From an uncultured Acidobacteriota bacterium (GTDB lineage Bacteria; Acidobacteriota; Thermoanaerobaculia; Gp7-AA8): DNA of 64,000 bases. The stretch lies in NCBI GenBank assembly GCA_963741955.1, contig CAVUKB010000005.1, forward strand, positions 1,402,179-1,466,178, in the 5' to 3' direction. Numbering within the stretch: position 1 is the first letter of the stretch; each line of letters starts with the position of its first letter. A model generated the notes under the pieces. It saw only the letters and a program-made list of their open reading frames with translations. It searched no databases and was not told the DNA's origin. A program made the position numbers and the translations under genes. Shown here one piece after another: positions 2,282-60,234 of this stretch.

Positions 2282-2300
2282 TCGACGCGACTGCAGTCGG

Positions 2301-5545: not shown

Positions 5546-5741
5546 GTCCTCGCCCCTCAACACGACAGGCACGCCGCGGTATTCTCCGGCCGCATGATGC
5601 CGCCACGCAGACCCGATGCTGGTCCGGCCCGGGAACCGAAGGCGCGGGTTCACCCCGTGCGCTGCAGCGCAATCTCCGGCGGTGGTCCGGTTGCCGGCCC
5701 CGCGTTCAGCAGGGAGACCCGGGGGGCATTGAAACGAAGAA

Positions 5742-34947: not shown

Positions 34948-36126
34948 ATGAAAACTGAGGCACCAGAAGCGATGCAGACCGGAGATTCACTGGTCCGAAC
35001 GAGCTGGAAATCCGCTCCCTCACCGTCCATGTCGGATCGCGAGTACTTCATGAGCGAGACCGCACGGCGGGTGCGGCAGCTGGCCGTTTCGGAGTGGAGC
35101 GACTCCCGTCCGGTGGAGATGGTGGGAAAATCCCCCCTCTACATGGACCTCCAGAAGAAGGTCCTGAAGATCGCTCCGTTCCAGGAACCGGTGCTGATCA
35201 CCGGCGAGAGCGGGGTCGGGAAGGAATCTCTCGCGCAGGCCATCTACCTTCTCGGCGGACGCAGAGGAAAGCCGATGATCTCGGTGAATTGTCCTCAGTA
35301 CCGCGAAGGGAATCTCACCGTCAGCGAGCTCTTCGGTCACAAGAAGGGGAGCTTCACCGGCGCAACTGCGGACCGGCAGGGGTGCTTCGAGATCGCGAAC
35401 GGCGGAGTGATCTTCCTCGACGAGATCGGCGATCTGCACATGAGCGCACAGGTGATGCTGCTCCGCGCGCTGGCCAACGGCGAGTTCCAGCCCCTCGGGT
35501 CGGACACCACCCGCAAAGTCAACGTCCGGGTGATCGCCGCAACCAACCGGCAACTGGACAAACTAATGGTGGGCGAAGAATTCCGCCACGATCTATTCTT
35601 CCGTCTGCAGTACTTCCTGCTGAAGGTGCCGAGCCTGCGCGAGCGGGGCGACGACTGGCGACTCCTCCTCGACTTCTATCTGGAGAAGCTCTACCGCAAA
35701 TACGGAGTGCGCAAGTACTTCACCGGTGAGTCACTGAAGACACTGGAGAAGTACGAGTGGCCGGGCAACATCCGGGAATTGATCAGCCTCACCACCACCG
35801 GCTACGCGATGTCCGACGGCGATCAGATCCGCCCCGAGGATTTCGTGACGGTGATGAACGGCGCGACTCAGCCCCGATCGGCCGACCTGGTGGAGACTCT
35901 CTACCGGAAGATGGTCGACGAGAGACTGAGCTTCTGGGATGCCGTGCACACGCCGTTTCTCGATCGCGATCTGAACCGCGCAGAAGTGCGCGAGCTGATC
36001 CGCCGCGGCCTCACCCGGGCGCACGGGAGCTACCGGCAGTTACTGACGCTGTTCGGGCTTCCGGAAGAGGAATATCAGCGGTTCATGGATTTTCTGCGCC
36101 ACCACCGGTTGAAGCCGGACGCCTGA
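34948..36126 (+). CDS. Sigma54-dependent enhancer-binding protein without an N-terminal sensor domain (start may be 35029 or 35050)
   Basis: Walker A GESGVGKE, ELFGHKKGSFTGA, Walker B FLDEIGD, RVIAATN, FRHDLFFRL, WPGNIREL, helical C-terminal domain. Confidence 0.9.
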   Translation: MKTEAPEAMQTGDSLVRTSWKSAPSPSMSDREYFMSETARRVRQLAVSEWSDSRPVEMVGKSPLYMDLQKKVLKIAPFQEPVLITGESGVGKESLAQAIYLLGGRRGKPMISVNCPQYREGNLTVSELFGHKKGSFTGATADRQGCFEIANGGVIFLDEIGDLHMSAQVMLLRALANGEFQPLGSDTTRKVNVRVIAATNRQLDKLMVGEEFRHDLFFRLQYFLLKVPSLRERGDDWRLLLDFYLEKLYRKYGVRKYFTGESLKTLEKYEWPGNIRELISLTTTGYAMSDGDQIRPEDFVTVMNGATQPRSADLVETLYRKMVDERLSFWDAVHTPFLDRDLNRAEVRELIRRGLTRAHGSYRQLLTLFGLPEEEYQRFMDFLRHHRLKPDA

Positions 36127-37032: not shown

Positions 37033-38520
37033 ATGACTCCCATCCGCGCCGTGGTTTTCGATCTGTACGGAACGCTCCTCCGGGTCCGCTCACGTGGACT
37101 CCACCGCGAAATGCCCCGGATCCTCGGCACCTCCGTCTCGGCCTGGCTCGAGCTCGTCCGCGACGAACTGCTGACCCGACCCTTTGCCACCTCGTCCGAA
37201 TTCGCCCGTTTCATCTGCGACCGTCTCGCGTCGAACGAATCAGAAGAGCCGGAATCGCGATGCGTCGCAGCGATCGATCGGGAGCTGGCCTCCGTGGAAG
37301 CCTTCGAGGGAGCGATCTCCCTCCTCTCTTTTCTCAAGCGGCGCGGCTACCGGCTCGGTGTGATCTCGAATCTTTCCAGCAGCTACAAGGAGCCGCTCGC
37401 CCGCTGCGGGATGGATGCCCTCTTCGATGCGACCTGCTTCTCCTGCGACGAGGGCGTAGCCAAGCCCGATCCCGTGATCTACCAGCGGATGTGCGAGCGG
37501 CTCGAAGTCACGCCCGGAGAGGTCCTCTTCGTGGGCGACTCGCACGCAAACGACGTCGAGGCTCCGGCGGCACTCGGGATGAAGACGCTTCCGATCGGTA
37601 CCGGACCGGGATCTCTCCGCACCGTGTCGGATCTCGGGTGGTACGTGTTCGGCGAAGATGGGAGCGTACGCCCCCTCCTCACACCGGACGCACGTTTCCG
37701 TTTCGGAGCGGCCGAGCTCCCGCTCGGCGACATCAGGCCGGTGGAAGACGACGAACAGGGCCGCTACAACGTCGTGTACCGCCTCCGGTCACTGGAGCCG
37801 AACGAGACCGACCAGCAGGTCTACTGCAAGCGCTACTTCCTCCCCGAGTCGACATGGGTGGAGGCATTCGCCCACCGGATGTACCGCGCCGCGGGATTTC
37901 CCGGATGCGATGCCGTCGTCTTCGGAGAGGCCGAACCGCTCCTCGCCGTTTCCGAAGCGCCGGGAAAGAAGTACGACGGCGAGCTCGATCCGGAGATCGC
38001 GTGGGAAGTGGGCCGTCACTTCACGTTCGCGTACTTCTTCTCCAATGCGGACATCCGTCCCCGGAATGCCTTTCTCTCGCGGGACGGTTCCCGCCCTCGG
38101 ATCACCATGATCGACCTGGAGCACTGCTTCTTCAATCTCGCCATCGATACGAGCGGAATCGCCGACCCGTTCGATCCGAAAGGCATCGATGCTCTTTCCG
38201 ATCTCCCGGAGAGGATGGGGAAAAAGGTTCTCACCGAGCGCGCGATGCGGCGGGCGCGCCGCAGCTTCGTGATGGAAGAGAACGTCTCGACCGAGATCCT
38301 CCACGCCTACCGGCGTGGTTTTCTGGACTGCTTCGCGGAGATGAAGGAACGAAAAGACGAGATCGTCGGAATTCTCCGCGAGCGGATTTACCGGAAGCCG
38401 TATCTGGTCATCGGAACTCACGGATACCGGAGGGCGATGGCGGGCGTCGATCTGGACGACATCGAGCAGAGGCTGGAGCACGACGGTGTCACCGTGCTCA
38501 ACTCTTTCTGTCCGGAGTAA
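37033..38520 (+). CDS. HAD-superfamily hydrolase fused to a HipA/PI3K-like atypical kinase domain
   Basis: HAD motifs FDLYGTL, ISN, KPDP, VGDS..ND. C-terminal half has GRYNVV, YCKRY, VEAFA, NADIRPRNAFL, MIDLEHCF. Confidence 0.75.
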   Translation: MTPIRAVVFDLYGTLLRVRSRGLHREMPRILGTSVSAWLELVRDELLTRPFATSSEFARFICDRLASNESEEPESRCVAAIDRELASVEAFEGAISLLSFLKRRGYRLGVISNLSSSYKEPLARCGMDALFDATCFSCDEGVAKPDPVIYQRMCERLEVTPGEVLFVGDSHANDVEAPAALGMKTLPIGTGPGSLRTVSDLGWYVFGEDGSVRPLLTPDARFRFGAAELPLGDIRPVEDDEQGRYNVVYRLRSLEPNETDQQVYCKRYFLPESTWVEAFAHRMYRAAGFPGCDAVVFGEAEPLLAVSEAPGKKYDGELDPEIAWEVGRHFTFAYFFSNADIRPRNAFLSRDGSRPRITMIDLEHCFFNLAIDTSGIADPFDPKGIDALSDLPERMGKKVLTERAMRRARRSFVMEENVSTEILHAYRRGFLDCFAEMKERKDEIVGILRERIYRKPYLVIGTHGYRRAMAGVDLDDIEQRLEHDGVTVLNSFCPE

Positions 38521-38598: not shown

Positions 38599-39318
38599 TC
38601 ACCAGTACAGCGCCCAGCCGTCGCTTGTTCTGACCCCGTGCCCCTGGACGGTGATACGCGCTTCGCCTTCGAGATTCTTCATCGGCAGCATCTGGTGGAG
38701 GCGGTGTCCGGAATGGATGAAGATCCGACCCTCCGCATACGCTTCGTGCACCGGCTTCCGATTCTCGTCCAACTTTCGCTTTCGCTCCTCTTCGCCGAGC
38801 GGTCTCAGCTCGTTCCAGTCGAGATTCCAGACCGCGAGTCCGGCGCCACTCTTCGGCAGCCTCACCGGGATGGTGAATGAGAGCGGATCGACGAAGTCGG
38901 GATCGGGGAGGCCACTCCAGTCGATCAGTTCGTACTGGAGGTCGTAGTGCGCGCTCGCCTTCTGCTTTTCGAACGACTCGTGCGCGTAGAAGATGTGGAA
39001 CCCGGGAAGTCCGAGCGGAGCGTAGCAGCGCGCGGGTCGCCCGAGAAGGAGGGAGAGCCGCTGCTCGAGCCGCTCGTACATCCAGCCGAAGTGCTCCCGG
39101 AGGATGGGATTGAGCGCAGCGGCCTTCTCACGGTAGGAGTGGAAGCGCCCTTCCGTCGCATCGAGGTAGCTCGCAGCGCCGAGGGTGAAGAAAGGGAGAC
39201 CGCTCCACCGGCGCTCCCATGAGGACTCGAGCGATTGGAGAGTCTCGAGAATGCTCGAGCATTCCGCGTCGTCGAAGAGCTCGACCGAAAGAAGAGTGCC
39301 GGAGTCGGACGTGGTCAT
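38599..39318 (-). CDS. Putative 2OG-Fe(II) oxygenase
   Basis: HYD (HxD), SFTIPV..P..GAGL, distal LHQ and RIT.QGH strand pattern of a double-stranded beta-helix. Confidence 0.6.
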   Translation of the reverse strand: MTTSDSGTLLSVELFDDAECSSILETLQSLESSWERRWSGLPFFTLGAASYLDATEGRFHSYREKAAALNPILREHFGWMYERLEQRLSLLLGRPARCYAPLGLPGFHIFYAHESFEKQKASAHYDLQYELIDWSGLPDPDFVDPLSFTIPVRLPKSGAGLAVWNLDWNELRPLGEEERKRKLDENRKPVHEAYAEGRIFIHSGHRLHQMLPMKNLEGEARITVQGHGVRTSDGWALYW

Positions 39319-39647
39319 GAACGAACGATTATCCGACAAAACCGCGCCGCACGCAGCCGCGGCGTCGCGAGCGCGTCGTTCGACCGATGGAGCCCCTCGT
39401 CCATCGGCGATGCATATGCATCACTCACGGGGGCATTCCTCTCCGATCTCTTTCCGTGAATGCCCGGATCATCGAGCAGCAATTACCGTTTCTGTCCGGA
39501 TCGCGGCAAATCGCCGCCGCTCGTGCGAGGTGAAAGTCGAGCGAGCGCTCGGGATATGGAGCCGAAGCTCCATTTCCATCCAGGGGTCAGGTCTCCTGTT
39601 TGGACTCAACTCATTCCTCCACAACGACTTGCGCGATTCAGGCGACA

Positions 39648-39663
39648 TGGCACGCGGCCTGCT
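39648..39663 (+). promoter_or_regulatory. Putative sigma54 (-24/-12) promoter of the precursor/lanM operon
   Basis: TGGCACGCGGCCTGCT: TGGCACG plus GG-N10-GC, about 75 nt upstream of the first precursor ATG. Confidence 0.7.
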
Positions 39664-39738: not shown

Positions 39739-40104
39739 ATGAGTGAAGTCAGCAAGCAGGAGATCATCGGCCTCATCTACCAGTTCGCGGAGAACAACAC
39801 CGACTACCGTCGCGCGTTGCTCGCCGACCCCAAGAAGGTGCTCGAGAAGCAGATGCAGCAGAACCTTCCGGAATCGCTGAAGGTCAAAGTGGTTCAGGAG
39901 AGCGCGGATACGGTGTATCTGGTCGCTCCCTACGTCCCGCAGCAGGGCGACGAGCTCTCCGACGAGGACCTCGAGAAGGTCGCCGGCGGCAAGGGCAAAG
40001 GCGGCGGCGGCGGCACGACCCGCAACGAGAGCAACAACATGTACATCTGCAACGACACCAAAGGCATCGGAACCCGCGTCGAAGTCACCACCAACGTCGG
40101 GTAG
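39739..40104 (+). CDS. NHLP-leader RiPP precursor A1
   Basis: GAGGAG RBS; leader YRRALLADPKKVLE..VKVVQES..TVYLVAP..ELSDEDLEKVAGG; core KGKGGGGGTTRNESNNMYICNDTKGIGTRVEVTTNVG. Confidence 0.95.
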   Translation: MSEVSKQEIIGLIYQFAENNTDYRRALLADPKKVLEKQMQQNLPESLKVKVVQESADTVYLVAPYVPQQGDELSDEDLEKVAGGKGKGGGGGTTRNESNNMYICNDTKGIGTRVEVTTNVG

Positions 40105-40218: not shown

Positions 40219-40584
40219 ATGAGTGAAGTGAGTAAGCAGGAGATCATCGGTCTCGTCTATCAGTTCGCGGAGAACAACACCGACTACCGTCGCGCGTTGC
40301 TCGCCGACCCCAAGAAGGTGCTCGAGCAGCAGATGCAGCAGAGCCTTCCCGCGTCACTCCATGTCAAGGTGGTTCAGGAGAGCGCGGACACGGTGTATCT
40401 GGTCGCTCCCTACGTCCCGCAGCAGGGCGACGAGCTCTCCGACGAGGACCTCGAGAAGGTCGCCGGCGGCAAGGGCAAGGGCGGCGGCGGCGGCACGACC
40501 CGCAACGAGAGCAACAACATGTACATCTGCAACGACACCAAGGGCATCGGAACCCGCGTCGAAGTCACCACCAACGTCGGGTAA
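40219..40584 (+). CDS. NHLP-leader RiPP precursor A2 (core identical to A1)
   Basis: AGGAG RBS; near-identical leader and identical 37-aa core. Confidence 0.95.
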   Translation: MSEVSKQEIIGLVYQFAENNTDYRRALLADPKKVLEQQMQQSLPASLHVKVVQESADTVYLVAPYVPQQGDELSDEDLEKVAGGKGKGGGGGTTRNESNNMYICNDTKGIGTRVEVTTNVG

Positions 40585-40706: not shown

Positions 40707-41072
40707 ATGAGTGAAGTCACCAAGCAGGAAATCATCGGTCTGGTCTATCAGTTCGCGGAGAACAACGCCGACTACCGTCGCGCATTGCTCACCGATCCCA
40801 AGAAGGTGCTCGAGCAGCAGATGCAGCAGAACCTTCCCGCGTCGCTGAAGGTCAAGGTGGTTCAGGAGAGCGCGGACACCGTCTATCTGGTCGCCCCCTA
40901 CGTCCCGCAGCAGGGCGACGAGCTCTCGGATGAGGATCTCGAGAAGGTCGCCGGCGGCAAGGGCAAAGGCGGCGATGGCGGCACGACCCGCAACGAGAAG
41001 AACAACATGTACATCTGCAACGACGCCAAGGGCATCGGAACCCGCGTCGAAGTCACCACCAACGTCGGCTGA
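40707..41072 (+). CDS. NHLP-leader RiPP precursor A3 (variant core)
   Basis: GAGGAGG RBS; core KGKGGDGGTTRNEKNNMYICNDAKGIGTRVEVTTNVG. Confidence 0.95.
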   Translation: MSEVTKQEIIGLVYQFAENNADYRRALLTDPKKVLEQQMQQNLPASLKVKVVQESADTVYLVAPYVPQQGDELSDEDLEKVAGGKGKGGDGGTTRNEKNNMYICNDAKGIGTRVEVTTNVG

Positions 41073-41241
41073 TCATTCCGGTTCGCTCCCGGGTCGAAAT
41101 GGCCCGGGAGTGCTTCCGCGTGGATCGCTTCATCCAGCAGCGATCCACCCGGAAGCAGAAATCACCGTCGTCAGCCGGTCCGGTTCACTTCGAACGCATC
41201 AAACGAGACCGTGGTGGACGATCACCTCGCGCGTTATGCCC

Positions 41242-44200
41242 ATGTCCGATCTCGATCTGATTCGAATCGCAGCCCGCGCACGAACTCTCGACGAAGCGCT
41301 ACGGCCGGTCGAATCTCCCATCCCCCTCCCCTCAGGAAATGAAGTGTCGCTCTGGATGCGCGCGTACTCCCCCGACTCCGAGGAAGCGTTCCACCGGCGC
41401 CTCGCCTGGGACGGCCTCGATGCCGCCGCCGTCTGCTGTTCCCTCGCCGCGCCGCTCGCGGAGGATGCGATGCCCGGCTGGCTCAGCTCCCTCACGCGGG
41501 TCTGCCGGATCGCCGCATCGCTCGATCCGGCCGCAATCGACCGGCACGTCGATGCCCTCGGCGCCGGCGATCTCCCCTTCGCGCACCTCTGGATCCCGTT
41601 CGTCCTCTTCTCCCGCGAGGCTCTCGATTCGTCTCTCGTAGCAGAGGAGAATCGACGCATCACCACGGCGGCGCGGCTCCAGCTCGATCGCGAGATCCTG
41701 CGCCGCATCGCCGATGCCGGTGCGCTCGTCGCGCTCGACTGCTTCGATCGCTTTCGCTCCGCGCATGCAGCTGATGCCTACCGCACTTTCGTCGCCCGCA
41801 CACTCGCGGACGGCTACCGCGATCTCTTCACCGACTACAGCGCCCTCGGGCGGCGGCTGATCGGACTGGTGGACGGCTGGACCGCATCGGTCGCCGAGAT
41901 GCTCGCTCGCCTCACTGCCGACGAAGAACCGCTCGAGAAGACGTTCGCGATCGCGGCGGGCGAGATCGCGTCGATCGAGAGCTCACTTTCCGATCGTCAC
42001 GACGGGGGGCGCACCGTCACCCGCCTCACGTTCGCTTCCGGAGGGGAGCTGATCTACAAACCGCGCGACGTCGGCATCGTCACCGCCTGGAACGACCTCC
42101 TTCGATGGCTCGCGTCGCACGGGCTCTCGGATGCACCGGCACCGCTCACGGTCGTCGAGCGGGAGGGGTACGGCTGGGTCGAGCACGTCCCGCAGACGCC
42201 GGCGAAAGACCATAGCGCCGCAGAGCGCTATTTTGCACGCGCCGGATCCCTCGTCTTCCTCGCCTGGCTCCTGGAGGGGCGGGACCTCCACATGGAGAAC
42301 GTCATCGCCGGTCCCGCCGGACCGGTCCTGGTCGACGTGGAGGCACTCTTTCATCCCGCCTCGGCGCTCGATGCGCTCACCTCCTCCACGGCGGTCGCAG
42401 TCGCCGGCAACCGCATCCGCTCGAGCGTGTTGAACAGCGGGCTCCTTTCCTTCCCTCAGGCGGATCCCGAAGGCCGGATCTACGACGTCGGGGGACTGCG
42501 CGGACGTGGAGGCTACGTCCTTTCGCACGAGAGTCTCGTCTGGCGCGAGGTCAATCGCGACTCCATGAGAATCGAGCGGGAAGAAACCGTGGCTCCTCCG
42601 GCGAAGAACGTCCTTTACCTTCACGGGGAGGCTCTCTCTCCCGACGAATTCGCCGGAGCCCTCACCGGCGGGTTCGCATCGACGTGGCGGCTGTTCCTCG
42701 AACATCGGGACGAGATCCTCGCATCCGGCGGACCGCTGGCGCGTTTCGCGGGAAAGAAGGTGCGGGTGGTCTTCCGCCCGAGCAACCAGTACGCGATCGC
42801 TCTGCGCCAGATGACTGCGCCGTCGCAGCAGCGACGCGGAATCATCAGCGGCTTTCTGATCGATTCACTCAACCGGATTTTTGCGGGCGAGACGGAAAGA
42901 CCTCTCCTGTGGCCTCTCGTCGCGGAAGAGCGCCGTGCTCTCGAGAGGCTCGACATCCCGCTCTTTCTCGTTCCGACGGATTCGGACGAGATCGAGATCG
43001 CGGACGGTGAGCGCCTCTCGGGATGGTCCCTGCGGAACGGGTTCGAGATCGTACGCGAGCGGATCGCGTCGCTCGACGAGAGCGGACTCGCGATGCAACT
43101 CTCGCTTCTCCGCGCATCGCTTCTCCCGCATCGCGATCCGGTCGAGCAGGAGCCGGCAGAAAGCGGCCCTTCCTTCGAGATCGGTTCGCCCATCGCCGCC
43201 CGGGAAGACTTTCTGCGCGAAGCCGCGGCGATCGGAGACGAGATTCTCTCTCACGCAATCCACGGTGACGATGGTTCGGTCACCTGGATCGCGCCGGAGT
43301 TTCTCCGGCTCGAGGAGCGTCCCGACTTCGGCGCGACGTACTACCTCTACGGCGGCGTCACCGGCATTTCGATCTTCCTCGCCGCCCTCGCTCGCGTCAC
43401 TCGCACGGATCGTTTCGGGGCTGCGGCCCTCGCCGCTCTCCGCCCTCTCCGTTCGCTCGTCGGGAGCTCCGATGCCGAGCGGCTCCTCCGGCAGGAAGGC
43501 ATCGGAGGATGCAACGGCATCGGTTCACTCGTCTACGCAGTGAACCTCACGGGCGAGCTTCTGGACGACCCGGAGACCACTGCGCTGGCCGTCGATCTCG
43601 CCCGCTTCATCGACGAACCGCGCATCGCGTCCGATGAGCGATTCGACGTCGAAGGGGGAGCCGCCGGAGCGATCCTCGCACTTCTCGCACTCCACCGCTC
43701 CACGGGAGAGCCGTGGCTTCTGGAGCGGGCGCGGCTCTGCGCACGGCATCTGCTCGACCGTTCCCTGGTCGAGGGCGGCCTGCGCCGATGGCCCGGTCCC
43801 GACGGCTTCTCGCTGGCCGGGCTCGCGCACGGCTCCGCCGGCTACACCCTCGCTCTCGCCCGACTCGGCGCGGCGATCGGAGACACGGCCTTGATCGAAG
43901 CGGCTACCGAGTCGCTGCGATGGGAAGATTCGGTGTTCGATCCCTCCAGCGGCAACTGGCCGGTATTCCGGCGAGCCGGAAAACCCCCAGTCTTCATGAT
44001 TGCCTGGTGCCACGGCGCGGCCGGCATCGGTCTCTCCCGGCTCTCCCTCCGCGGTCTGATCAAGGATGACGCAGTCGAGAGAGGGATCGAGCGGTCGACG
44101 TCGACCGTCCTCGCCGATTCCCTCTTCGTCGTCGATCACCTCTGCTGCGGAAATCTCGGCCGGGACGAACTCCTCGTCGAATCGGGAGGCGAGGCTCTCG

Positions 44201-44421
44201 AAGAAGCACGCCGCCGCGCGACGGTCGCTCTCGACCGCCGCCGCAACAGCGGAGCGTGGGCCCTCCAGCCGGATGCCGAAGAGAACCGGATCTTCCAACC
44301 CGGCTTTTTCCGCGGACTCGCCGGCATCGGCTATTCGATGTTGCGTCTCGCCAACCCCGAATCACTTCCGTCGGTTTTGTCATTTGGAAATGCAGCATTC
44401 CTTTCCAGGAGAAGATCATGA
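41242..44421 (+). CDS. lanM: Class II lanthipeptide synthetase LanM, CCG-type (start 41236 or 41242)
   Basis: Dehydratase motifs SDRHDGG, YKPR, YGWVE, DLHMEN, VDVEALF, R.VFRPS..Y, LDIP. Cyclase motifs LYGG.TG, GLAHG, WCHG, LCCG. Confidence 0.95.
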   Translation: MSDLDLIRIAARARTLDEALRPVESPIPLPSGNEVSLWMRAYSPDSEEAFHRRLAWDGLDAAAVCCSLAAPLAEDAMPGWLSSLTRVCRIAASLDPAAIDRHVDALGAGDLPFAHLWIPFVLFSREALDSSLVAEENRRITTAARLQLDREILRRIADAGALVALDCFDRFRSAHAADAYRTFVARTLADGYRDLFTDYSALGRRLIGLVDGWTASVAEMLARLTADEEPLEKTFAIAAGEIASIESSLSDRHDGGRTVTRLTFASGGELIYKPRDVGIVTAWNDLLRWLASHGLSDAPAPLTVVEREGYGWVEHVPQTPAKDHSAAERYFARAGSLVFLAWLLEGRDLHMENVIAGPAGPVLVDVEALFHPASALDALTSSTAVAVAGNRIRSSVLNSGLLSFPQADPEGRIYDVGGLRGRGGYVLSHESLVWREVNRDSMRIEREETVAPPAKNVLYLHGEALSPDEFAGALTGGFASTWRLFLEHRDEILASGGPLARFAGKKVRVVFRPSNQYAIALRQMTAPSQQRRGIISGFLIDSLNRIFAGETERPLLWPLVAEERRALERLDIPLFLVPTDSDEIEIADGERLSGWSLRNGFEIVRERIASLDESGLAMQLSLLRASLLPHRDPVEQEPAESGPSFEIGSPIAAREDFLREAAAIGDEILSHAIHGDDGSVTWIAPEFLRLEERPDFGATYYLYGGVTGISIFLAALARVTRTDRFGAAALAALRPLRSLVGSSDAERLLRQEGIGGCNGIGSLVYAVNLTGELLDDPETTALAVDLARFIDEPRIASDERFDVEGGAAGAILALLALHRSTGEPWLLERARLCARHLLDRSLVEGGLRRWPGPDGFSLAGLAHGSAGYTLALARLGAAIGDTALIEAATESLRWEDSVFDPSSGNWPVFRRAGKPPVFMIAWCHGAAGIGLSRLSLRGLIKDDAVERGIERSTSTVLADSLFVVDHLCCGNLGRDELLVESGGEALEEARRRATVALDRRRNSGAWALQPDAEENRIFQPGFFRGLAGIGYSMLRLANPESLPSVLSFGNAAFLSRRRS

Positions 44422-45386
44422 CCGTCCAGAGTCCATCCACCGTCCAGATCCGGCCGGTCGGCGCCGGCGAGGCTGCCGTTTTTTCGGCCATGACTTTCCC
44501 GGCCTACCGGCACATGCTCTCGCTGGAGCGCACCGTCCGCCTTCCCCAGGAGCACGACAGCCTTCCGGTCGACCCGATCGCCGTGGCGGCGATCATCGAC
44601 GGAACACCGGCAGGGCTCGCGGTCGGAGAGCTGCCGGTCCTGGAGGATCATCTACCGGAGGTTCTCTCTCTCTTCGTCGCCCCGCAGTTTCGCGGTCACG
44701 GAATCGCGACGCAGCTGCTCGCGCGGATGGAAGAGGAGGTTCGGTCTCGCGGGTTCGAGCGCCTCCTCGGGATCTACATGACCGGTAAGTCGGGGGTCGA
44801 CGCGTTCGAGCACATCGCGGCGAAACGCGGATGGTCGGAGCCGCACGTGCGGATGGTCTCCTGCCGCTTCAGTGCGGAATCTCTCGCCTCCGCGCCGTGG
44901 CTCGGGAAGTACCACCTCCCGTCCGACTACGAGATCTTCCCCTGGAGCGAGCTCCGGGAGGAAGAGCGAGAGACCCTCCGGCGCTCGCACGCCGAGAATC
45001 CGTGGATCGCGCCGGATCTCCTCCCGTGGGAGTACGAGAAATTCGGCTTCGAGCCGAAGACCAGTCTCGGCATCCGCTACAAGGGAGTGGTGGTCGGATG
45101 GATCCTCAACCACCAGCTCGCGGACGATACGGTCCGCTACACCTGCAGCTACATCCGAAAAGATCTCGGCCGGCTCGGACGGATCGTCCCGGCGTACTCC
45201 GAATCATTCCGCCGCTTCATCGAAGCGGGCTTTCGGAACGCAACTTTCACCACTCCTCTCCACCACAAGGGGATGGCGGCATTCGCGAAAAGATGGTTCG
45301 CTCCCTGGTCGACCTTTTTCGGAGAAACCCGAGGCATCGAAAAATCTCTCGGTTCGGATCAATCGAACGATCGGTCCGGACTCTGA
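44418..45386 (+). CDS. GNAT-family acyltransferase, selidamide-type candidate
   Basis: ATGA overlap with lanM; acyl-CoA loop FVAPQFRGHGIATQL plus a second GNAT-like half (VVGW..H...RYT..YIRKDL.RLG). Confidence 0.85.
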   Translation: MTVQSPSTVQIRPVGAGEAAVFSAMTFPAYRHMLSLERTVRLPQEHDSLPVDPIAVAAIIDGTPAGLAVGELPVLEDHLPEVLSLFVAPQFRGHGIATQLLARMEEEVRSRGFERLLGIYMTGKSGVDAFEHIAAKRGWSEPHVRMVSCRFSAESLASAPWLGKYHLPSDYEIFPWSELREEERETLRRSHAENPWIAPDLLPWEYEKFGFEPKTSLGIRYKGVVVGWILNHQLADDTVRYTCSYIRKDLGRLGRIVPAYSESFRRFIEAGFRNATFTTPLHHKGMAAFAKRWFAPWSTFFGETRGIEKSLGSDQSNDRSGL

Positions 45387-47491: not shown

Positions 47492-49498
47492 ATGAGCCGC
47501 ACTCTGACTGCAGTCCTGACCCTCGCGCTGGCCGTGCTCCCGCTGTATGCGGAGACGGACCAGACTCCTCCTCCCGTACCCCCCGATCCTGTCTTTGCGT
47601 CGTCACCGCAGCTCGGGTTGAACGACGCCATCCTTCTCACTCTGCGCAAGGACCCGGGACTCCAGACCGCCGAGGAGAACAAGAAGTACGAGCGGGGAGT
47701 GCTGCAGGAAACCAGTGGGATCTTCGATCACGCGCTCCTCCTCGACGGCGATGCGGAATACCTCCGCGGCGAGCTGATCCCGCGAACATTCAATCAGCAG
47801 CTCGGCAGACGCGAGCTCTACAACTCGCTCGCCACGATCTTTCAACGCGTCGCCGACGATCTCCAGGCGAATCTCGACGAGAAGCCGAACGAGACGGCGA
47901 CCATCCCCTGCAAGGAGGGAGTCCTCACCGAGGGTACGCAGCTGGTGATCACCGACCCGAGTAACGGGCAGCAGATCATCGTGCAGTGCACCCCGCCGAC
48001 CGCGGACCAGACGGTCTATATCGACGAAGCGCTCGACACACTGATCGGCGCACAGAACAATCCCGGCCTCGAAGCAGAGCTCGAACGGCTGAAGAAGATG
48101 GGCGTGGAGATCTCGCGGCAGAAGATCGAGGAGATCATCGCGCTGCTCGATCAGTCGGCGTCGAGTTTCCGCGAACAGCTCCGCAGACTCGGCACCGCGC
48201 CGAACATCGAGGAGCAGATCTCTTTCCTCGCCGCGATCGGATATCGCGTCCCGATGCGCAACGGCGTGACCGTCACTCCCCGTTTCGCGGTCCAGAGCAT
48301 CGAGAAGAACTTCGTCGGCAAACCGAAGGATCCGAACTACGGTGGAGGGGGACCGACGAAGTATCAGGCCGCGGCAGGGTTCGAGCTCACCGCCCCTCTC
48401 GCCCGGGGCTACGGCATGGCGGTCGCCGACGTCTACGAACAGGCGGCGAAGATCAACTACAAGGCGAGTGTCAACGACTGGAGGCAGACTGCTTCCGCTT
48501 CGACGCTGAACTCGGTCCTCGCGTACTGGAATCTCCTCGCCGCCGAGCAGAATCTGCAGATCGCCAGCTCCACTGCGGACCGTTACCGGAACGTGCTCGA
48601 TCTCGGGCAGGCGCTCGTCGACGCATACGAATTCCCGCGGGCAGACATGAATCAGGTCCGGGCGCGGGTCGCAGGCGCAGAGTCTTCTCTCGCCGGCGCA
48701 CGTAAGGCCGTCAGCGACGCGCGGGTCGCGCTCGCCCGCACTACCGGCATGGAGATCGATACGATCGACCAGGCGCCGGTGGCGACCGGCGATTTCCCTC
48801 CCGTCCCCGATCCTGCGCTGTTTCAGAGCGTTCCGGTCCGGAGTCTGATCGACATGGCGATCGGAAATCGCGGAGACGTTCAGGCCGCCATCGACCGGAA
48901 GGAAGCAGCTGCGCTCCTTCGGGAGGCCGCGAGGAAAAACCTCAAACCGCAGACCGACCTGACGCTCTTCGTCGGCTATACCGGGAACGACGCGAACTAC
49001 GACGCGTGGCGCGGTCTCCGCCATGCGCTCTTCGGAAACTGGATCGGTCCGACCGCATATCTGACGCTCAACTTCGAGACGCCCTTCCAGAACAACGTCT
49101 GGCGCGGCCGTCTGGTTCAGGCGGTCGCGACTGAAAACCAGAGCGATGTGATCGCCACCGATACCAGGCGCGTGGTCTCCGCACGCGTGGTCGAGCTCTG
49201 GGGTGCACTGGCGAGAGCAGCCGAATCAGTGCGCACGAATCAGAGCACCGTGGAGTACTATCAGAGAACAGTAGACGGACAAATCGAGAAGCTGAAAGTC
49301 GGTGAAGGAACACTCATCGACGCCATCTTCACCGAGCAGCAGCTCACCACGGCGAAGCAGTCGCTGGTCGCTGCGAAGCTCGGCTACGCCTCTCTTCTCA
49401 TGCAGCTGCGGTACGAGACCGGGACACTCGTGACCACCGGCTCGCAGGGACAACTGATGATCGTGCCCGGAGGCATCGAGCAGCCTCCGGTGCCCTGA
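47492..49498 (+). CDS. TolC-family outer-membrane factor 2, paralog of factor 1
   Basis: Signal peptide; AILLTL..DP, ELTAPLARG, AYWNLLAA, NRGDV, LKPQTDL, EKLKVGEGT, LRYETG. Confidence 0.85.
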   Translation: MSRTLTAVLTLALAVLPLYAETDQTPPPVPPDPVFASSPQLGLNDAILLTLRKDPGLQTAEENKKYERGVLQETSGIFDHALLLDGDAEYLRGELIPRTFNQQLGRRELYNSLATIFQRVADDLQANLDEKPNETATIPCKEGVLTEGTQLVITDPSNGQQIIVQCTPPTADQTVYIDEALDTLIGAQNNPGLEAELERLKKMGVEISRQKIEEIIALLDQSASSFREQLRRLGTAPNIEEQISFLAAIGYRVPMRNGVTVTPRFAVQSIEKNFVGKPKDPNYGGGGPTKYQAAAGFELTAPLARGYGMAVADVYEQAAKINYKASVNDWRQTASASTLNSVLAYWNLLAAEQNLQIASSTADRYRNVLDLGQALVDAYEFPRADMNQVRARVAGAESSLAGARKAVSDARVALARTTGMEIDTIDQAPVATGDFPPVPDPALFQSVPVRSLIDMAIGNRGDVQAAIDRKEAAALLREAARKNLKPQTDLTLFVGYTGNDANYDAWRGLRHALFGNWIGPTAYLTLNFETPFQNNVWRGRLVQAVATENQSDVIATDTRRVVSARVVELWGALARAAESVRTNQSTVEYYQRTVDGQIEKLKVGEGTLIDAIFTEQQLTTAKQSLVAAKLGYASLLMQLRYETGTLVTTGSQGQLMIVPGGIEQPPVP

Positions 49499-49560: not shown

Positions 49561-50661
49561 ATGGCGAAGGCCGACAAGATCTTTCGAAAAGCAGCACTGG
49601 AAAAACTCTCCTCCCCCGAGCGTCTCGACGTGCTGATGGAGGTGACCTCTCCCGCCGGATGGCTTGCGCTCTCGGCACTCGGCGTGGTCATCGCCCTGGT
49701 CATCGTCTGGAGTTTCTACGGAACGATCGGGACCAAGGTCGGGGGTCAGGGAATTCTTCTCCGTGGCGGCTCGGTGCTTCAGGTCACCTCCGACACTCAG
49801 GGACGGATCACCAAGCTCTACGTCGCTCCGGGCGAGAACGTCGAGGCCGGAATGGTCGTCGCGGATATCGCTCAGGACGACTACAAGCTGAAGATCGACA
49901 ACCAGAAGGCGCTTCTGGCCGATCTGGTCCGCCAGAACGACACGCTCTCGACGACCGGTCTGGAAAGTTCGCTCGAGGAGAAGATCAAGGCCCAGACCAC
50001 ACTCGTCTCGCGAGGGCTGCTGACCAAGAGCGACCTGATGGCGACCATGGAGCAGCTGGCCAGCCTCCGGCGTCAGGCCGCGAGCCGCGCCACTCAGATC
50101 GATCAGCTCCGACGGCAGATCGGCGAGATGGAGATGCAGATGGTCAACGCCTCGCGCATCACCTCTCCTTATTCCGGTCGCGTCCTGGAAGTGGGCACCG
50201 GCGTCGGCGAGTTGATCGCTCCCGGCATGCGAGTCTTCACACTCGAGCCGCCGCGGGCGCCGATCGACGTCGTTCTCTACGTCCCGGCGGCGGAGGGGAA
50301 AAAGATCAAGCCCGGAATGGAAGCGCGCATCTCACCTTCGACGGTCAAGGCCGAAGAGTTCGGCTTCATGATCGGAAGGGTGACCGGCGTCTCCGATTTT
50401 CCGGTCACCCCGGACGGGCTGCAGAAGGTGCTCCGCAATGATTCTCTCGTCCAGCAGCTGGCCGGGCAGGGAGCTCCGATCGAGGTGAAAGTCAGGCTCA
50501 CTCCGGATAAGAACACTCCGAGCGGATTCAAGTGGTCGTCGTCACTCGGGCCGCCGGTGAAGGTGGCCACCGGAACCCTCTGTGTGGGCACGGTCGTCGT
50601 GGCCGAAAAGAAACCCATCTCTTACATCCTGCCGATCTTCAAGTCGGCAGCGGGAATGTGA
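49561..50661 (+). CDS. NHLP bacteriocin system secretion protein (HlyD-like adaptor)
   Basis: IFRKAALEKLSSPERLD, TM helix, coiled coil, PSTVKAEEFG, SGFKWSSS.GPP. Confidence 0.92.
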   Translation: MAKADKIFRKAALEKLSSPERLDVLMEVTSPAGWLALSALGVVIALVIVWSFYGTIGTKVGGQGILLRGGSVLQVTSDTQGRITKLYVAPGENVEAGMVVADIAQDDYKLKIDNQKALLADLVRQNDTLSTTGLESSLEEKIKAQTTLVSRGLLTKSDLMATMEQLASLRRQAASRATQIDQLRRQIGEMEMQMVNASRITSPYSGRVLEVGTGVGELIAPGMRVFTLEPPRAPIDVVLYVPAAEGKKIKPGMEARISPSTVKAEEFGFMIGRVTGVSDFPVTPDGLQKVLRNDSLVQQLAGQGAPIEVKVRLTPDKNTPSGFKWSSSLGPPVKVATGTLCVGTVVVAEKKPISYILPIFKSAAGM

Positions 50662-50676: not shown

Positions 50677-52869
50677 GTGGCTGAAGAAGAGAAAAAGGAG
50701 CTCAAAGCGAAGCGCCCGAAGCATCGCCGGGTCAAGACTCCGACGGTGATCCAGATGGAAGCGGTCGAATGCGGAGCTGCGGCGCTCTCCATCGTGCTGG
50801 GGTACTTCGGACGGAACGTTCCACTCGAAGAGCTTCGCATCGAGGCCGGCGTCTCACGCGACGGCTCCAAAGCGAGCAATGTGCTCAAGGCCGCCCGTAA
50901 GTACGGGCTGAACGCAAAAGGAGTGAAGTACGACGTCGAGAATCTGTTCGACGTGAAGTATCCGGCGATTCTTTTCTGGAACTTCAACCACTTTCTGGTG
51001 CTGGAGGGATTCAAGGGGGGGAAGGCCTGCCTGAACGATCCGGCCATGGGTCCGCGTATGGTGACCATGGAGGAGCTCGACGAGTCCTTCTCCGGCGTCG
51101 CTCTCACCTTCGAAGCGGGAGAGAATTTTCAGAAGGGGGGACAGAAGGAGAGCATGAGTGCGGCGCTCTACAAGCGCCTCAAGGGCAACGAGCGCGCGCT
51201 CCTGTACATCGTCCTCTGCGGTCTTTTTCTGGTCGTCCCCGGACTGGTGGTTCCGACCTTCGCCAGGGTCTTCGTCGACGAGTACCTCGTCGGGGCGCGC
51301 GAATACATCATCCGGCCGTTGCTGCTGGCCATGGGCCTGACTGCGGTGGTGATGATCGCCCTCACCTATCTCCAGGAGTACTTCCTCCTGAGGATGGAGA
51401 CGAAGCTCTCGCTCACCACGTCGACGGAGTTCTTCAACCACATCCTCAGGTTGCCGGTGTCGTACTTCTCGCAGCGGTTCGCGGGAGAGATCGGCTCGCG
51501 CGTTCTGATCAACGACAAGGTCGCGGCGCTGATCTCCGGCCGCCTCGCCACTACTCTTCTGAACACGGTGCTGATCGTCTTCTACGCGATCCTGATGTTC
51601 CTCTACGACGTGAAGCTCACCCTGGTGGTGATCTTCCTGTCGACCGCGAACATCCTCGCGGTGAAGCTCGCCGCGAAGAGACGCACCGACGCCAGCCGCA
51701 AACTGATGCAGGACCAGGGAAAGCTGATCGGAACCTCGATGGGCGGCCTGCAGATGATCGAGACCCTGAAAGCCACCGGATCCGAGCCGGAGTTCTTCGC
51801 ACGCTGGTCCGGCTATCAGGCCAAGGCGATGAGCGCGGAACAGGAGCTGGCCAAGCTGACCGAATACATGGGATCCGTTCCGGTGCTGGTGAACACCATG
51901 ATCACCGGCGCAATCCTGATGATGGGCGGGTTGAAAGTCATTCATGGCGAGATGACAGTCGGTATGCTCGTCGCGTATCAGACTCTCGCCGCGTTCTTCG
52001 TCCGCCCCTTGAACACCCTGGTCCGGTTCGGCGCCGATCTGCAGGAGCTGCAGGCCGACATGAACCGCCTCGACGACGTCCTCAGCTACCCGCAGGACAA
52101 CATGTACGCCCGTGAGGTGGAAGACGAGAGCCAGAGAAAGATGCTCAAGCTCTCCGGCGAGATCGAGCTCCGGAACGTGACGTTCGGATACAACCCTCTC
52201 GAGAAACCGCTGATCGAGAACTTCAACCTGAAGATCAAGCCGGGGCAGCGCGTCGCGTTCGTCGGCGGATCCGGAAGCGGGAAGTCGACCATCTCGAAAC
52301 TGATCGCCGGACTGTACGAGCCGTGGTCCGGCGACATCCTGTTCGACGGCATTCCGCGGACTCAGCTCGCGCCGAAGCTCATCGCGAACTCCCTCGGCGC
52401 GGTCGATCAGGACATCTTCCTCTTCAGCGGATCGATCCGCGACAACATCTCCATGTGGGATTCGACCATCCCCGACGTGAACGTCACCACCGCTGCCAAG
52501 GACGCCGCGATCGCCGAAGTCATCGAGACCCGTGACGGCGCATACCAGTCGCTGATCGACGAAGGCGGCAACAACTTCAGCGGCGGACAGCGGCAGCGCA
52601 TGGAGATCGCGCGAGCCCTGGTCGGCAACCCGACCATCCTCATCCTCGACGAGGCGACCAGCGCGCTCGATCCGAACACCGAAGTCTCCATCGACGATCA
52701 CCTCCGCCGGAGAGGCTGTACCTGCATCATCGTCGCGCACCGGCTCAGCACCATCCGCGACGCGGACGAGCTCGTGGTGCTCCATCGCGGAAAGATGGTC
52801 CAGCGCGGAACGCACGACGAGCTCAAACAGGATGAACAGGGACCTTACGCACGTCTGATCAAGGAGTGA
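50677..52869 (+). CDS. NHLP export ABC transporter with C39 peptidase, permease and ATPase domains
   Basis: KTPTVIQMEAVECGAA (catalytic Cys), WNFNHFLV, NDPA; GGSGSGKST, SGGQRQR, DEATSALD. Confidence 0.95.
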   Translation: MAEEEKKELKAKRPKHRRVKTPTVIQMEAVECGAAALSIVLGYFGRNVPLEELRIEAGVSRDGSKASNVLKAARKYGLNAKGVKYDVENLFDVKYPAILFWNFNHFLVLEGFKGGKACLNDPAMGPRMVTMEELDESFSGVALTFEAGENFQKGGQKESMSAALYKRLKGNERALLYIVLCGLFLVVPGLVVPTFARVFVDEYLVGAREYIIRPLLLAMGLTAVVMIALTYLQEYFLLRMETKLSLTTSTEFFNHILRLPVSYFSQRFAGEIGSRVLINDKVAALISGRLATTLLNTVLIVFYAILMFLYDVKLTLVVIFLSTANILAVKLAAKRRTDASRKLMQDQGKLIGTSMGGLQMIETLKATGSEPEFFARWSGYQAKAMSAEQELAKLTEYMGSVPVLVNTMITGAILMMGGLKVIHGEMTVGMLVAYQTLAAFFVRPLNTLVRFGADLQELQADMNRLDDVLSYPQDNMYAREVEDESQRKMLKLSGEIELRNVTFGYNPLEKPLIENFNLKIKPGQRVAFVGGSGSGKSTISKLIAGLYEPWSGDILFDGIPRTQLAPKLIANSLGAVDQDIFLFSGSIRDNISMWDSTIPDVNVTTAAKDAAIAEVIETRDGAYQSLIDEGGNNFSGGQRQRMEIARALVGNPTILILDEATSALDPNTEVSIDDHLRRRGCTCIIVAHRLSTIRDADELVVLHRGKMVQRGTHDELKQDEQGPYARLIKE

Positions 52870-57471: not shown

Positions 57472-57603
57472 TCTCGAATTCCGGATCTGGAGGACGAAAC
57501 TCGGCTTCGCGTTGCACCGTCGGATCAGAGAGTGCACCACATGACCGTCAGCCTTCAGATTCGAAATTCGAATTTCGAGACTCGAGATCTCAGATAAACG
57601 ACC

Positions 57604-59313: not shown

Positions 59314-59482
59314 AACGAATGGGCTCGATCCGACAATCAGAAATGGTGAAACTGACTCAAAGTTCAATTGAATTGTTCCGGTCGTTCCGATAACCTCGAC
59401 CGGAAAGAACAGCTGTCCGTCCGTCTCATGATTGAACCCCGGATTTCCGGGACGCAGCTCCCTCGACAGGAAGGGTACGAAC

Positions 59483-60223
59483 ATGGTGCAGGCCATTTCT
59501 CGCGACACCAAGAGTTCTTCCGAGAGCGCCTCGCCGAAAGCGGCGAGCTATTTCGTTCAGTTCAATCCCGGTGACTTCGTCTTCAAGAGCGGGGACACCG
59601 GAGAAGAAATGTTCATCATCGAGGAAGGTCAGGTGGAGATCGTGGCAGGAACGACGGTCGTCACCACTCTCGAGCGGGGCGATTTCTTCGGCGAGATGGC
59701 CATTCTCGAAGACATGCCGAGAAGCTCGTCCGCGCGTGCGAAGGCGGCCTGCAAGCTTCTCCGGATCGACCGGAATCTCTTCGACCAGATGATCCGCCAG
59801 AATCCGGAGATCGCCATCCGGATGCTTCGCAGTCTCTCCCACCGGCTCCGTCAGGCCTCTGCCAGCGCGCCGGTCGCGCACGCTGCCGCGCCGCAGGGAC
59901 CGGCTCCCGGAAGGATCGTCACCGACGCGGGTGCCAGCTTCGACCTCTCGTCCACCGAGGCGACGACGGTGGGCCGTTTCGATCCGTCGACCGGCATCCG
60001 GCCGGTGATCGACCTCGGCGAGGCCGACACCGATCGGAGCATCAGCCGCCGCCATGCGAAGATCACCCGAAGCGACGGGAAGTTCCTGATCGTGGAAGAA
60101 GTCGGCACCAGCAACGGCACGTTCGTCAATGGCACCCGTCTCCAGCCGGGCGTTCCCGTCGAGATCCACAACGGAGACGAAGTCACGTTCGGCCGGCTGA
60201 AGACGAAATTCCAGCTCGCATAA
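59483..60223 (+). CDS. Cyclic-nucleotide-binding domain plus FHA domain protein
   Basis: MFIIEEG.V, FFGEMAILEDMPRSSSARA (phosphate-binding cassette); FHA VGR..SISRRHA..TSNGTFVNG. Confidence 0.9.
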   Translation: MVQAISRDTKSSSESASPKAASYFVQFNPGDFVFKSGDTGEEMFIIEEGQVEIVAGTTVVTTLERGDFFGEMAILEDMPRSSSARAKAACKLLRIDRNLFDQMIRQNPEIAIRMLRSLSHRLRQASASAPVAHAAAPQGPAPGRIVTDAGASFDLSSTEATTVGRFDPSTGIRPVIDLGEADTDRSISRRHAKITRSDGKFLIVEEVGTSNGTFVNGTRLQPGVPVEIHNGDEVTFGRLKTKFQLA

Positions 60224-60234
60224 CCGGGGAGCCC

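Follow-up and report, generated by a model that had tools for sequence, protein, structure and literature searches.

A tandem GNAT coupled to lanM in an acidobacterial gene cluster is a candidate lysine acyltransferase of the selidamide family

The gene that follows lanM in this acidobacterial cluster very probably encodes a peptide N-epsilon-acyltransferase that belongs to the selidamide (NpuN/KspN/PhaN) family, acts in the cytoplasm and depends on the leader, judging from its sequence. An earlier note had proposed the product, here called P0001, as a selidamide-type fatty-acyl transferase acting on Lys, and this candidacy appears well supported by homology to NpuN, by the cluster context and by precursor cores that begin with Lys. 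The same note had also presented direct lipidation of Lys as new. This has to be given up, as NpuN, whose cluster has no arginase, is reported to transfer a C16 acyl group from acyl-CoA directly onto Lys1 of a class II lanthipeptide (PMC8784127; PMC13060382), and KspN and PhaN are reported to accept Lys when it is installed (PMC13647313). Because direct Lys acylation by this family is already in print, the category of enzyme is unchanged and P0001 is a new candidate member of it. Our literature search found no paper on lanthipeptide GNATs of Acidobacteriota.

Only three enzymes have been characterised that attach fatty acyl groups to side chains of ribosomal peptides, a young and still small field of chemistry that is of interest for gene-encoded designer lipopeptides. 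The toolbox of such enzymes would grow if an acidobacterial example were confirmed, one that goes with an NHLP leader, a one-ring core and three substrates that are nearly identical; its preferred chain length could also be a different one. The elements of the cluster are given below with their positions in the window, i.e. the whole stretch of 64,000 nucleotides that was analysed, and with their strand.

34948..36126, + strand: sigma-54 enhancer-binding activator, cluster-syntenic
37033..38520, + strand: HAD hydrolase fused to a kinase-like C-terminal domain, cluster-syntenic
38599..39339, - strand: Fe(II)/2-oxoglutarate oxygenase-fold protein of 246 aa (239 aa in the collection), with invariant H-x-D, distal His and R-x-T
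39648..39663, + strand: sigma-54 promoter-like site (GG-N10-GC type), 91 nt upstream of the precursor 1 ATG
39739..40104, + strand: NHLP-leader precursor 1; leader ending in Gly-Gly, 37-residue core with a Lys-Gly-Lys start and a single Cys
40219..40584, + strand: NHLP-leader precursor 2 (TIGR03793, 66 bits against a cut-off of 50.9); core equal to that of precursor 1
40707..41072, + strand: NHLP-leader precursor 3; core differing from that of precursor 2 at three positions
41236..44421, + strand: class II lanthipeptide synthetase LanM (TIGR03897, 721 bits against a cut-off of 304; DUF4135 and LANC_like)
44418..45386, + strand: P0001, tandem-GNAT acyltransferase homologous to NpuN, 322 aa
45502..47469, + strand: TolC-like outer-membrane protein 1
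47492..49498, + strand: TolC-like outer-membrane protein 2
49561..50661, + strand: HlyD-type secretion protein of the NHLP bacteriocin system (TIGR03794, 341 bits)
50677..52869, + strand: NHLP export ABC transporter with an N-terminal C39 peptidase (TIGR03796, 1082 bits; Peptidase_C39)
52874..55840, + strand: NHLP export ABC transporter, second subunit (TIGR03797, 929 bits)

With a LanM that carries dehydratase and LanC-like domains, and with adjoining precursors that bear Cys and Ser/Thr, the window holds a class II lanthipeptide cluster. The overlap of P0001 with lanM, pointed out before, was recovered: the lanM stop codon TGA (44419-44421) and the P0001 start codon ATG (44418-44420) share an ATGA junction, and AGGAG (44407-44411) lies 6 nt upstream of this ATG. 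An alternative, longer in-frame ORF opens at GTG 44256; the ATG start matches the N-termini of 22 aligned homologues, and an identical 322-aa product was found in the protein collection. LanM starts at Met 41236 or 41242, and its longest ORF (40930-44421) runs into precursor 3. In 40 of 45 related loci LanM is situated directly upstream of the GNAT, surrounded by NHLP precursors and exporter, in the order precursor-LanM-GNAT-exporter. Where both genes are present (38 loci), the stop of LanM and the start of the GNAT overlap by 4 nt (12 loci) or by 1 nt (3 loci), or the two genes are fused in frame (5 loci). Because these overlaps and fusions recur, the ATGA junction in the window is not a product of chance. 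Natural LanM-GNAT fusions number 7 among the best 150 family representatives, and a further example of a fusion is the single ORF 1552-5949 of locus L007. The fusions in relatives suggest cyclisation and lipidation in one complex, and this bears on the roles of the two GNAT domains.

The kinship of P0001 was detected by searching with tblastn against 72,556 plasmids, which returned 13 records only. The best match was pNPUN01 of Nostoc punctiforme PCC 73102, where the matching protein, WP_012412981.1, is encoded near the LanM WP_012412979.1 and a Nif11 precursor; these are the accessions given for NpuN and NpuM (PMC13060382). BLASTP aligned P0001 and NpuN collinearly over residues 19-311, with 118 of 294 positions identical (40%, E 2e-76), an identity that leaves the chain length and the acceptor site of P0001 unfixed. 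In an alignment of 120 family sequences NpuN retains all 13 invariant columns and 42 of the 50 that are at least 90% conserved. The idea that the enzyme comes from a poorly sampled lineage is not borne out as to the family, which comprises 825 cluster representatives at E <= 1e-30 in a profile search and 45 loci in named genomes.

A tree of 56 rows was built with NpuN as the sole characterised member, including 9 of the 120 database homologues and P0114 and leaving out the fused protein L049, the window's own duplicates, GNAT translations shorter than 250 aa (L037, L041, L048) and the cut L045. The branch leading to two RiPP-linked GNATs from Shinella (SH-aLRT 88, with very long outgroup branches) does not separate NpuN from P0001, and NpuN itself sits on a long branch (1.59) within an unresolved base. 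Acidobacterial homologues are placed within the selidamide clade, in the same subclade as KspN, by Hubrich et al. (PMC8784127).

Pfam and NCBIfam recognise P0001 solely by generic GNAT/acetyltransferase motifs, as one would expect if it were an ordinary housekeeping or inactive GNAT that adjoins lanM by accident. We regard this as highly improbable, in view of the full-length homology to NpuN and of the LanM adjacency in the related loci, together with the fusions. The distribution of the gene speaks in the same direction: it occurs in 3 of 301 genomes of the phylum, the window's own included, and in none of the 5 searched genomes of the same family, and is therefore an accessory gene. Finally, ordinary GNATs of known structure match the N-terminal motif of P0001 only, at E >= 3e-6, so that the clustering with ordinary acetyltransferases that would have spoken against a lipidation enzyme was not seen.

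The AF2 model of P0001 (pLDDT 94.9) has tandem GNATs as its best structural matches, in agreement with the two GNAT folds suspected previously in its 322 residues. The domains are as follows.

Residues ~9-152: N-terminal GNAT domain, P-loop R92-A97
Residues ~171-310: C-terminal GNAT-like domain, loop degenerate; contains the invariant R240/T242/C243 strand and H283

The CoA-binding P-loop is thus confined to the N-terminal half. The QFRGHG loop described earlier is indeed present, at residues 90-95, but the register conserved in the family is placed two residues further on in the same loop: R92 and G95 are each retained in 119 of 120 homologues, whereas Q90 and G93 are not among the columns conserved to at least 90%. 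When solved structures were searched by sequence, no close relative of P0001 emerged, and the matches were weak and confined to the N-terminal motif (best Naa60, E 3.4e-6). The solved tandem GNATs 2wpw/2wpx (clavulanate pathway), 5kf1 (glucosamine N-acetyltransferase), MshD 1ozp and VipF 6wqb share 12-15% identity with P0001 and carry out acetyl transfer, on small-molecule or other substrates. Several solved tandem GNATs are described with the active CoA site in the C-terminal domain, whereas in P0001 the canonical P-loop is N-terminal. Weir et al. describe NpuN likewise as a tandem GNAT with a P-loop in its N-terminal half only.

Regarding the substrates, all three cores of the window start with Lys, as had been noted; they open with Lys-Gly-Lys after Gly-Gly, and each contains one Cys and several Ser/Thr. 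Further Lys residues are found at positions 3 and 24 in all three cores and at position 14 in precursor 3. In 47 cores from 33 loci, Lys was present within positions 1-4 in every case (at position 1 in 26), and Arg was found in these positions in none. The core of NpuA opens with Lys-Gly-Lys as well. The reported lack of an arginase gene could be extended to the whole genome: no match to the peptide-arginase family PF12640 was found in the window genome (99.1% complete), while the same search succeeded in 7 of the 301 genomes of the phylum. A classical arginase was considered too and rejected for such a role, the sole gene with the arginase fold (PF00491) being located on contig C4 and the window on C5.

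The additional Lys residues leave room for an acyl group on another nucleophile, such as Lys3 or a later Lys, a residue hydroxylated by the oxygenase, or the alpha-amine after leader removal as in goadvionin. In published work KspN acylates non-native positions in low yield, and the pha pathway acylates a hydroxylated ornithine. Nevertheless, this appears quite improbable to us. NpuN is reported to modify Lys1 and to be unable to use Lys3 or Lys24 (PMC13060382), and KspN and PhaN to modify the most N-terminal acceptor (PMC13647313). Moreover, Lys in positions 1-4 is the sole feature that the 47 cores have in common, and the alpha-amine is presumably not free in the cytoplasm because the C39 transporter probably does not take off the leader before export.

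The comparison with the npu cluster shows how far the analogy extends. Both enzymes are full-length tandem GNATs with an N-terminal P-loop only and without an arginase in the cluster, and both clusters combine LanM, an NHLP-type HlyD/ABC exporter and a core with Lys-Gly-Lys after a Gly-Gly junction. In contrast, NpuA has four Cys and four rings, while the window has three precursors with one Cys and at most one ring each. Because the leader of NpuA is of the Nif11 type and that of the window is NHLP, leader recognition cannot be transferred from NpuA. The npu genes follow the order LanM-precursor-GNAT, with the GNAT uncoupled from LanM, as opposed to the ATGA overlap in the window. Beyond npu, the window has two TolC-like genes, the Fe(II)/2OG oxygenase, the HAD-kinase-like gene and the sigma-54 activator, in another host lineage.

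In the case of KspN (kamptornamide, C12:0) and PhaN (phaeornamide, 3-OH-C10:0), likened here by description, the NHLP-type precursors, the LanM partner and the N-terminal core acceptor are shared with the window. Their native acceptor is ornithine or hydroxyornithine made via the PF12640 arginase, in contrast to the window genome without PF12640. Both are reported to need the cognate leader, with the chain length set by each enzyme (PMC13647313). The GNATs of goadvionin, microvionin/lipolanthine and lipoavitide, again compared by description, belong like P0001 to the GNAT superfamily in lanthipeptide pathways, but they lipidate the peptide N-terminus; according to Hubrich et al. (PMC8784127), N-terminal-lipidating class III GNATs fall outside the selidamide clade. 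The donor for goadvionin is an ACP-bound polyketide chain from dedicated cluster genes, whereas no FAS, PKS, ACP or acyl-CoA ligase genes were found in the flanks searched in the window (26-35 kb, 55.8-64 kb). This absence fits with an acyl donor from primary metabolism.

The length of the chain is fixed by nothing in the sequence of P0001, and the generic acetyltransferase motifs mentioned above are the only ones detected by Pfam and NCBIfam. Furthermore, NpuN, which uses acyl-CoA donors with C16 as the best, is reported to take acetyl-CoA as well in vitro. P0001 could accordingly be an enzyme that puts no more than an acetyl or other short acyl group on the Lys side chain, for example for self-protection or charge removal, and whose product is no lipopeptide. 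We give this a small chance, slightly larger than that of another nucleophile. All three characterised relatives are reported to transfer C10-C16 selectively in E. coli, and a self-resistance role for NpuN was judged unlikely by Weir et al.

Returning to fatty acylation as the preferred function, we infer the activity of P0001, its acceptor site, donor and chain length, the order of steps and the roles of the two domains as follows. The three NHLP precursors would be produced, probably from a sigma-54 promoter. LanM would dehydrate Ser/Thr and then close one (methyl)lanthionine ring with the single Cys, and P0001 would be made in translational coupling with it. The N-terminal GNAT domain of P0001 may use its P-loop to bind acyl-CoA from primary metabolism, while the degenerate C-terminal GNAT-like domain may hold the peptide. 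A medium- or long-chain acyl group would then be attached, at the side-chain amine, to the Lys that comes first after Gly-Gly (Lys1; Lys3 less likely). The C39-peptidase ABC transporter, the probable cleavage enzyme of the Gly-Gly leader, would cut after Gly-Gly at export, and the lipolanthipeptide would leave through HlyD and TolC.

On a more tentative level, the window may represent a distinct, uncharacterised subfamily of selidamide-type lipolanthipeptides, mostly from Acidobacteriota and Xanthomonadales-type bins. Here LanM and acyltransferase would form one physical unit, and in the branch of the window a WelO5-fold Fe(II)/2OG hydroxylase would add a modification. This reading is a possible one, to which we would not commit. 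The cores concerned are 22-37 residues long. They carry a Lys in positions 1-4 and one invariant Cys, which is followed 7-10 residues later by a conserved Thr/Ser; therefore, the Cys of the ring would often have to precede the residue to which it is joined. If the subfamily reading is true, it would provide a new lipopeptide scaffold and possibly a new chain-length specificity.

The remaining genes of the cluster recur to varying degrees. Of the 45 related loci, 9 have a homologue of the oxygenase, which is likely an extra tailoring enzyme, between LanM and GNAT, 17 have a HAD-kinase-like homologue ahead of the precursors, and 25 have a homologue of the sigma-54 activator with 53-65% identity. 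Upstream of this activator the search of the flanks for lipid-supply genes showed only an SDR and a methyltransferase.

The sigma-54-like site at 39648..39663 has one mismatch to the consensus. Across the window, 10 sigma-54-like matches were observed versus 13 expected, i.e. no enrichment. Despite this count the site was retained, because the motif recurs at the same distance in relatives: 14 of 29 related loci have it 70-105 nt ahead of a precursor gene, over a background of 0.006 per 250 nt.

The earlier note had taken P0001, the 322-residue GNAT-type protein whose gene adjoins lanM (window 44418..45386, + strand), for a candidate Lys fatty-acyl transferase and for a new kind of enzyme. The first proposal is very probably right: judged from its sequence, P0001 is a new member of the selidamide acyltransferase family, with a predicted activity. 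The second does not hold, because direct Lys lipidation by this family is already established by published results on NpuN, KspN and PhaN. NpuN, the Lys acyltransferase of the nostolysamide pathway of Nostoc punctiforme, acylates Lys1 in a cluster without an arginase, and the selidamide clade takes in acidobacterial homologues (Hubrich et al. 2022, PMC8784127). According to Weir et al. 2026 (PMC13060382), acylation by NpuN is abolished in Lys1Ala and retained in Lys3Ala, and the purified enzyme accepts acetyl-, lauroyl-, myristoyl-, palmitoyl- and oleoyl-CoA, palmitoyl-CoA being the best donor. There, NpuN is described as having two GNAT domains in tandem, of which only the N-terminal one shows a clear P-loop, and its catalytic domain and the purpose of the lipid are left as open questions. 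KspN and PhaN, whose native acceptors are ornithine or hydroxyornithine, also accept Lys (Bosch et al. 2026, PMC13647313). In the same paper, both act only on cores joined to their own leader, chain length is set by the enzyme-leader pair, and the target of KspN is the most N-terminal acceptor.

NpuN is also the best match among plasmids. Of 72,556 plasmids searched in translation, only 13 records matched, the top one being pNPUN01 from Nostoc punctiforme PCC 73102. The matching protein, WP_012412981.1, is accompanied by the LanM WP_012412979.1 and a Nif11 precursor, together with the same NHLP exporter genes as here; the two accessions are those of NpuN and its LanM, NpuM, in the nostolysamide paper (PMC13060382). 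P0001 and NpuN share 40% identity over 294 aligned positions (E 2e-76), and all 13 columns that are invariant in the 120-sequence family alignment are retained in NpuN, as are 42 of its 50 columns with at least 90% conservation. His265 of NpuN, close to the substrate Lys in the model of Weir et al. (PMC13060382), aligns to His283 of P0001. For Asp "182" of these authors, the nearest Asp in the RefSeq translation is Asp183 (residue 182 is Glu), which aligns to Asp200 of P0001. Like the window cores, the core of the Nostoc precursor NpuA has Lys-Gly-Lys straight after Gly-Gly. The remoter plasmid matches examined (Shinella, Mesorhizobium) adjoin Nif11/NHLP precursors and radical-SAM RiPP enzymes.

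Regarding the gene itself, the described ATGA overlap and the length of 322 residues were confirmed. The lanM frame (ORF 40930-44421) ends with TGA at 44419-44421, the ATG of P0001 lies at 44418, and AGGAG is found 6 nt 5' of it. A longer in-frame ORF is possible from GTG at 44256; the N-termini of 22 homologues line up with the ATG, and the exact 322-aa product is present in the protein collection. Pfam detects one GNAT stretch (residues 52-118). The two GNAT folds proposed earlier were recovered in an AlphaFold2 model (pLDDT 94.9, pTM 0.87; input alignment of 120 homologues), which predicts two alpha/beta domains at about 9-152 and 171-310. The solved structures that match this model best are tandem GNATs (lowest Foldseek E 1e-13), namely the clavulanate-pathway protein 2wpw/2wpx, the glucosamine N-acetyltransferase 5kf1, MAB_4324, MshD and VipF. 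The QFRGHG string is indeed present in the first domain, at residues 90-95, and belongs to the same loop as the family-conserved register R92-x-x-G95-x-A97, which lies two residues further on; R92 and G95 each occur in 119 of 120 homologues. S84, V87, R92 and G95 are still present in homologues as remote as those of Shinella and Mesorhizobium. The C-terminal GNAT-like domain accounts for most of the family's invariant residues, including an R-x-T-C strand also present in NpuN. Ordinary GNATs of known structure match P0001 at the N-terminal motif only, with E 3e-6 or worse.

The gene context includes the following elements:

39739-40104, NHLP-leader precursor 1, upstream of the P0001 gene
40219-40584, NHLP-leader precursor 2, upstream of the P0001 gene
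40707-41072, NHLP-leader precursor 3, upstream of the P0001 gene
45502-47469 and 47492-49498, + strand, two tandem TolC-like outer-membrane genes, between the P0001 gene and the HlyD/ABC exporter genes

The genome has no NHLP-leader precursor genes other than these three. As anticipated, all three cores begin with Lys: each leader ends in Gly-Gly, followed by a core of 37 residues that starts with Lys-Gly-Lys and contains one Cys. With 721 bits to TIGR03897, the LanM is clearly a synthetase of class II. 3' of the P0001 gene, the TolC-like genes, two here and none in the Nostoc cluster, are accompanied by an NHLP-type HlyD protein and a C39-peptidase ABC transporter with its partner. PF12640 is the peptide-arginase family of ornithine-type selidamide pathways (PMC8784127). 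The reported lack of an arginase gene extends to the whole 99.1%-complete genome, where PF12640 has no match; the same search does pick up this family in 7 genomes out of 301 from the phylum and is therefore able to detect a peptide arginase. The sole classical arginase-fold gene of the genome lies on a different contig. No genes for a fatty-acid synthase, polyketide synthase, carrier protein or acyl-CoA ligase were seen in the examined flanks. Directly 3' of the exporter genes (55879-60924, + strand) there is a partner-switching-type gene set, with a DUF7005 protein with HATPase, an FHA-GAF-SpoIIE phosphatase, a cNMP-binding FHA protein and a STAS protein.

Altogether, the NpuN homology, fold, motifs, gene context, missing peptide arginase and Lys-first cores provide a basis for a proposed mechanism. 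P0001 would bind acyl-CoA from primary metabolism via the N-terminal P-loop, while the C-terminal GNAT-like domain would hold the peptide. A medium or long acyl chain would be placed on Lys1 with the leader still attached, and export with Gly-Gly cleavage would follow. The length of the chain cannot be read from the sequence.

The family is large. The protein collection contains 135 homologues of similar length, and when a profile was run against 1.84 billion cluster representatives, 2604 matched at E <= 1e-3, of which 1609 reached E <= 1e-10 and 825 reached E <= 1e-30. We collected 45 related loci in named genomes, 32 of them in Acidobacteriota-type bins and the remainder mostly in Rhodanobacteraceae, Lysobacter, Aquimonas and Burkholderiales bins. 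In 40 of the 45, the gene directly 5' of the GNAT is LanM, and TolC-HlyD-ABC genes follow 3' wherever the contig is long enough. Of 47 cores from 33 loci (the window and 32 relatives), 26 open with Lys, and in the others the first Lys comes at position 2 (11 cores), 3 (3 cores) or 4 (7 cores); Arg occurs in positions 1-4 of none, and 46 have exactly one Cys.

Within the phylum the distribution of the GNAT gene is patchy, with 3 of 301 sampled genomes positive (this one included) and none of five from the same family. A quick maximum-likelihood tree was built from 56 rows, with two long-branched Shinella proteins as outgroup. In it, P0001 clusters with a pair of metagenomic proteins (SH-aLRT 98) beside the Xanthomonadales-type clade; NpuN falls at the unresolved base together with a Pantanalinema sequence. 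The closest named relatives of this cluster type, with the oxygenase gene described below, are in gammaproteobacterial bins: L033 and L034 (Aquimonas, with cores very similar to those of the window), L012, L013, L017 and L018 (Rhodanobacteraceae) and L019 (Lysobacter). Together with the 3 in 301 genomes, this comparison suggests that the cluster moved between phyla.

The coupling of LanM and GNAT was surveyed in the 38 loci having both. In 12 of them, stop and start share 4 nt, and in 3 they share 1 nt; the gap is 2-36 nt in 6 and 705-1138 nt in 7, where an oxygenase homologue or, in Nostoc, the precursor lies between. An oxygenase homologue occupies this place in 9 of the 45 loci. The GNAT start is ambiguous in 4 loci and none was found in 1. 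In the other 5, the LanM frame runs continuously through the GNAT, and four of these fusions were confirmed, three as uninterrupted ORFs (1418, 1465 and 1512 residues, not in the order listed) and the fourth as an ORF open at its 5' end:

L007, 1552-5949, LanM-GNAT fusion ORF
L031, 4440-8978, LanM-GNAT fusion ORF
L005, 4689-8945, LanM-GNAT fusion ORF
L008, 1-3726, LanM-GNAT fusion ORF, 5' open

Among the best 150 profile matches, seven proteins of 1374-1445 residues (P0255, P0256, P0257, P0260, P0261, P0264 and P0279) likewise combine DUF4135, LanC-like and GNAT regions. Natural fusions of 1374-1512 aa, with DUF4135, LanC-like and tandem GNAT parts, occur across several independent bins and represent, as one protein, the pair that is ATGA-coupled in the window. 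In the main texts of PMC13060382 and PMC8784127 we found no mention of such fusions ('fused' and 'fusion', respectively, occur 0 times).

Further elements are linked to the cluster:

34948-36126, + strand, sigma-54 activator gene, syntenic in 25 of 45 loci
37033-38520, + strand, HAD hydrolase fused to a kinase-like domain of about 300 residues, with a homologue lying close upstream of the precursor genes in 17 of the 45 loci
38599-39339, - strand, Fe(II)/2OG oxygenase-fold protein of 246 aa (model match, invariant H-x-D...H)
39648-39663, + strand, sigma-54 promoter-like site, 91 nt 5' of the first precursor gene

The oxygenase-fold protein belongs to a family of 301 homologues without a name, with invariant H-x-D, distal His and R-x-T. 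Its model (pLDDT 94.9) matches Fe(II)/2OG oxygenases, WelO5 being the nearest. Halogenases of the WelO5 fold are not known to have the Asp ligand; since the Asp of H-x-D is kept here, the protein looks like a hydroxylase and probably serves as an additional one acting on the peptide. Of 29 related loci, 14 carry the sigma-54-like motif between -70 and -105 (background 0.006 per 250 nt), and the motif is accompanied by the syntenic activator and the HAD-kinase-like fusion gene. The lanthipeptide operon may, from these motifs, be under sigma-54 control. For the domain of about 300 residues in the fusion protein, the Atlas model is similar to HipA, Kdo, APH and RIO-type kinases.

As for ring direction, 7 of the 47 cores have no Ser/Thr N-terminal of the invariant Cys, and every core has one C-terminal of it; in 38 of 42 distinct cores, a Thr/Ser follows the Cys at a distance of 7-10 residues. 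Given the missing upstream partners and the recurrent downstream ones, the single ring predicted from these cores must be closed with Cys on the N-terminal side in many members. The window LanM carries a Cys-Cys-Gly motif, which we take to be the mark of a three-Cys zinc site. Such a site is discussed for ProcM-type enzymes, which can cyclise in both directions (Weir et al., PMC13060382).

Finally, tandem GNAT homologues were also found joined to other domains: DUF4915 (P0266, P0284), P450 (P0335, P0350), FemAB (P0285), a methyltransferase (P0278) and, in Gloeothece, a TIGR03032 protein (L049). These fusions to other enzyme domains hint that the acyltransferase module is used beyond lanthipeptide pathways.
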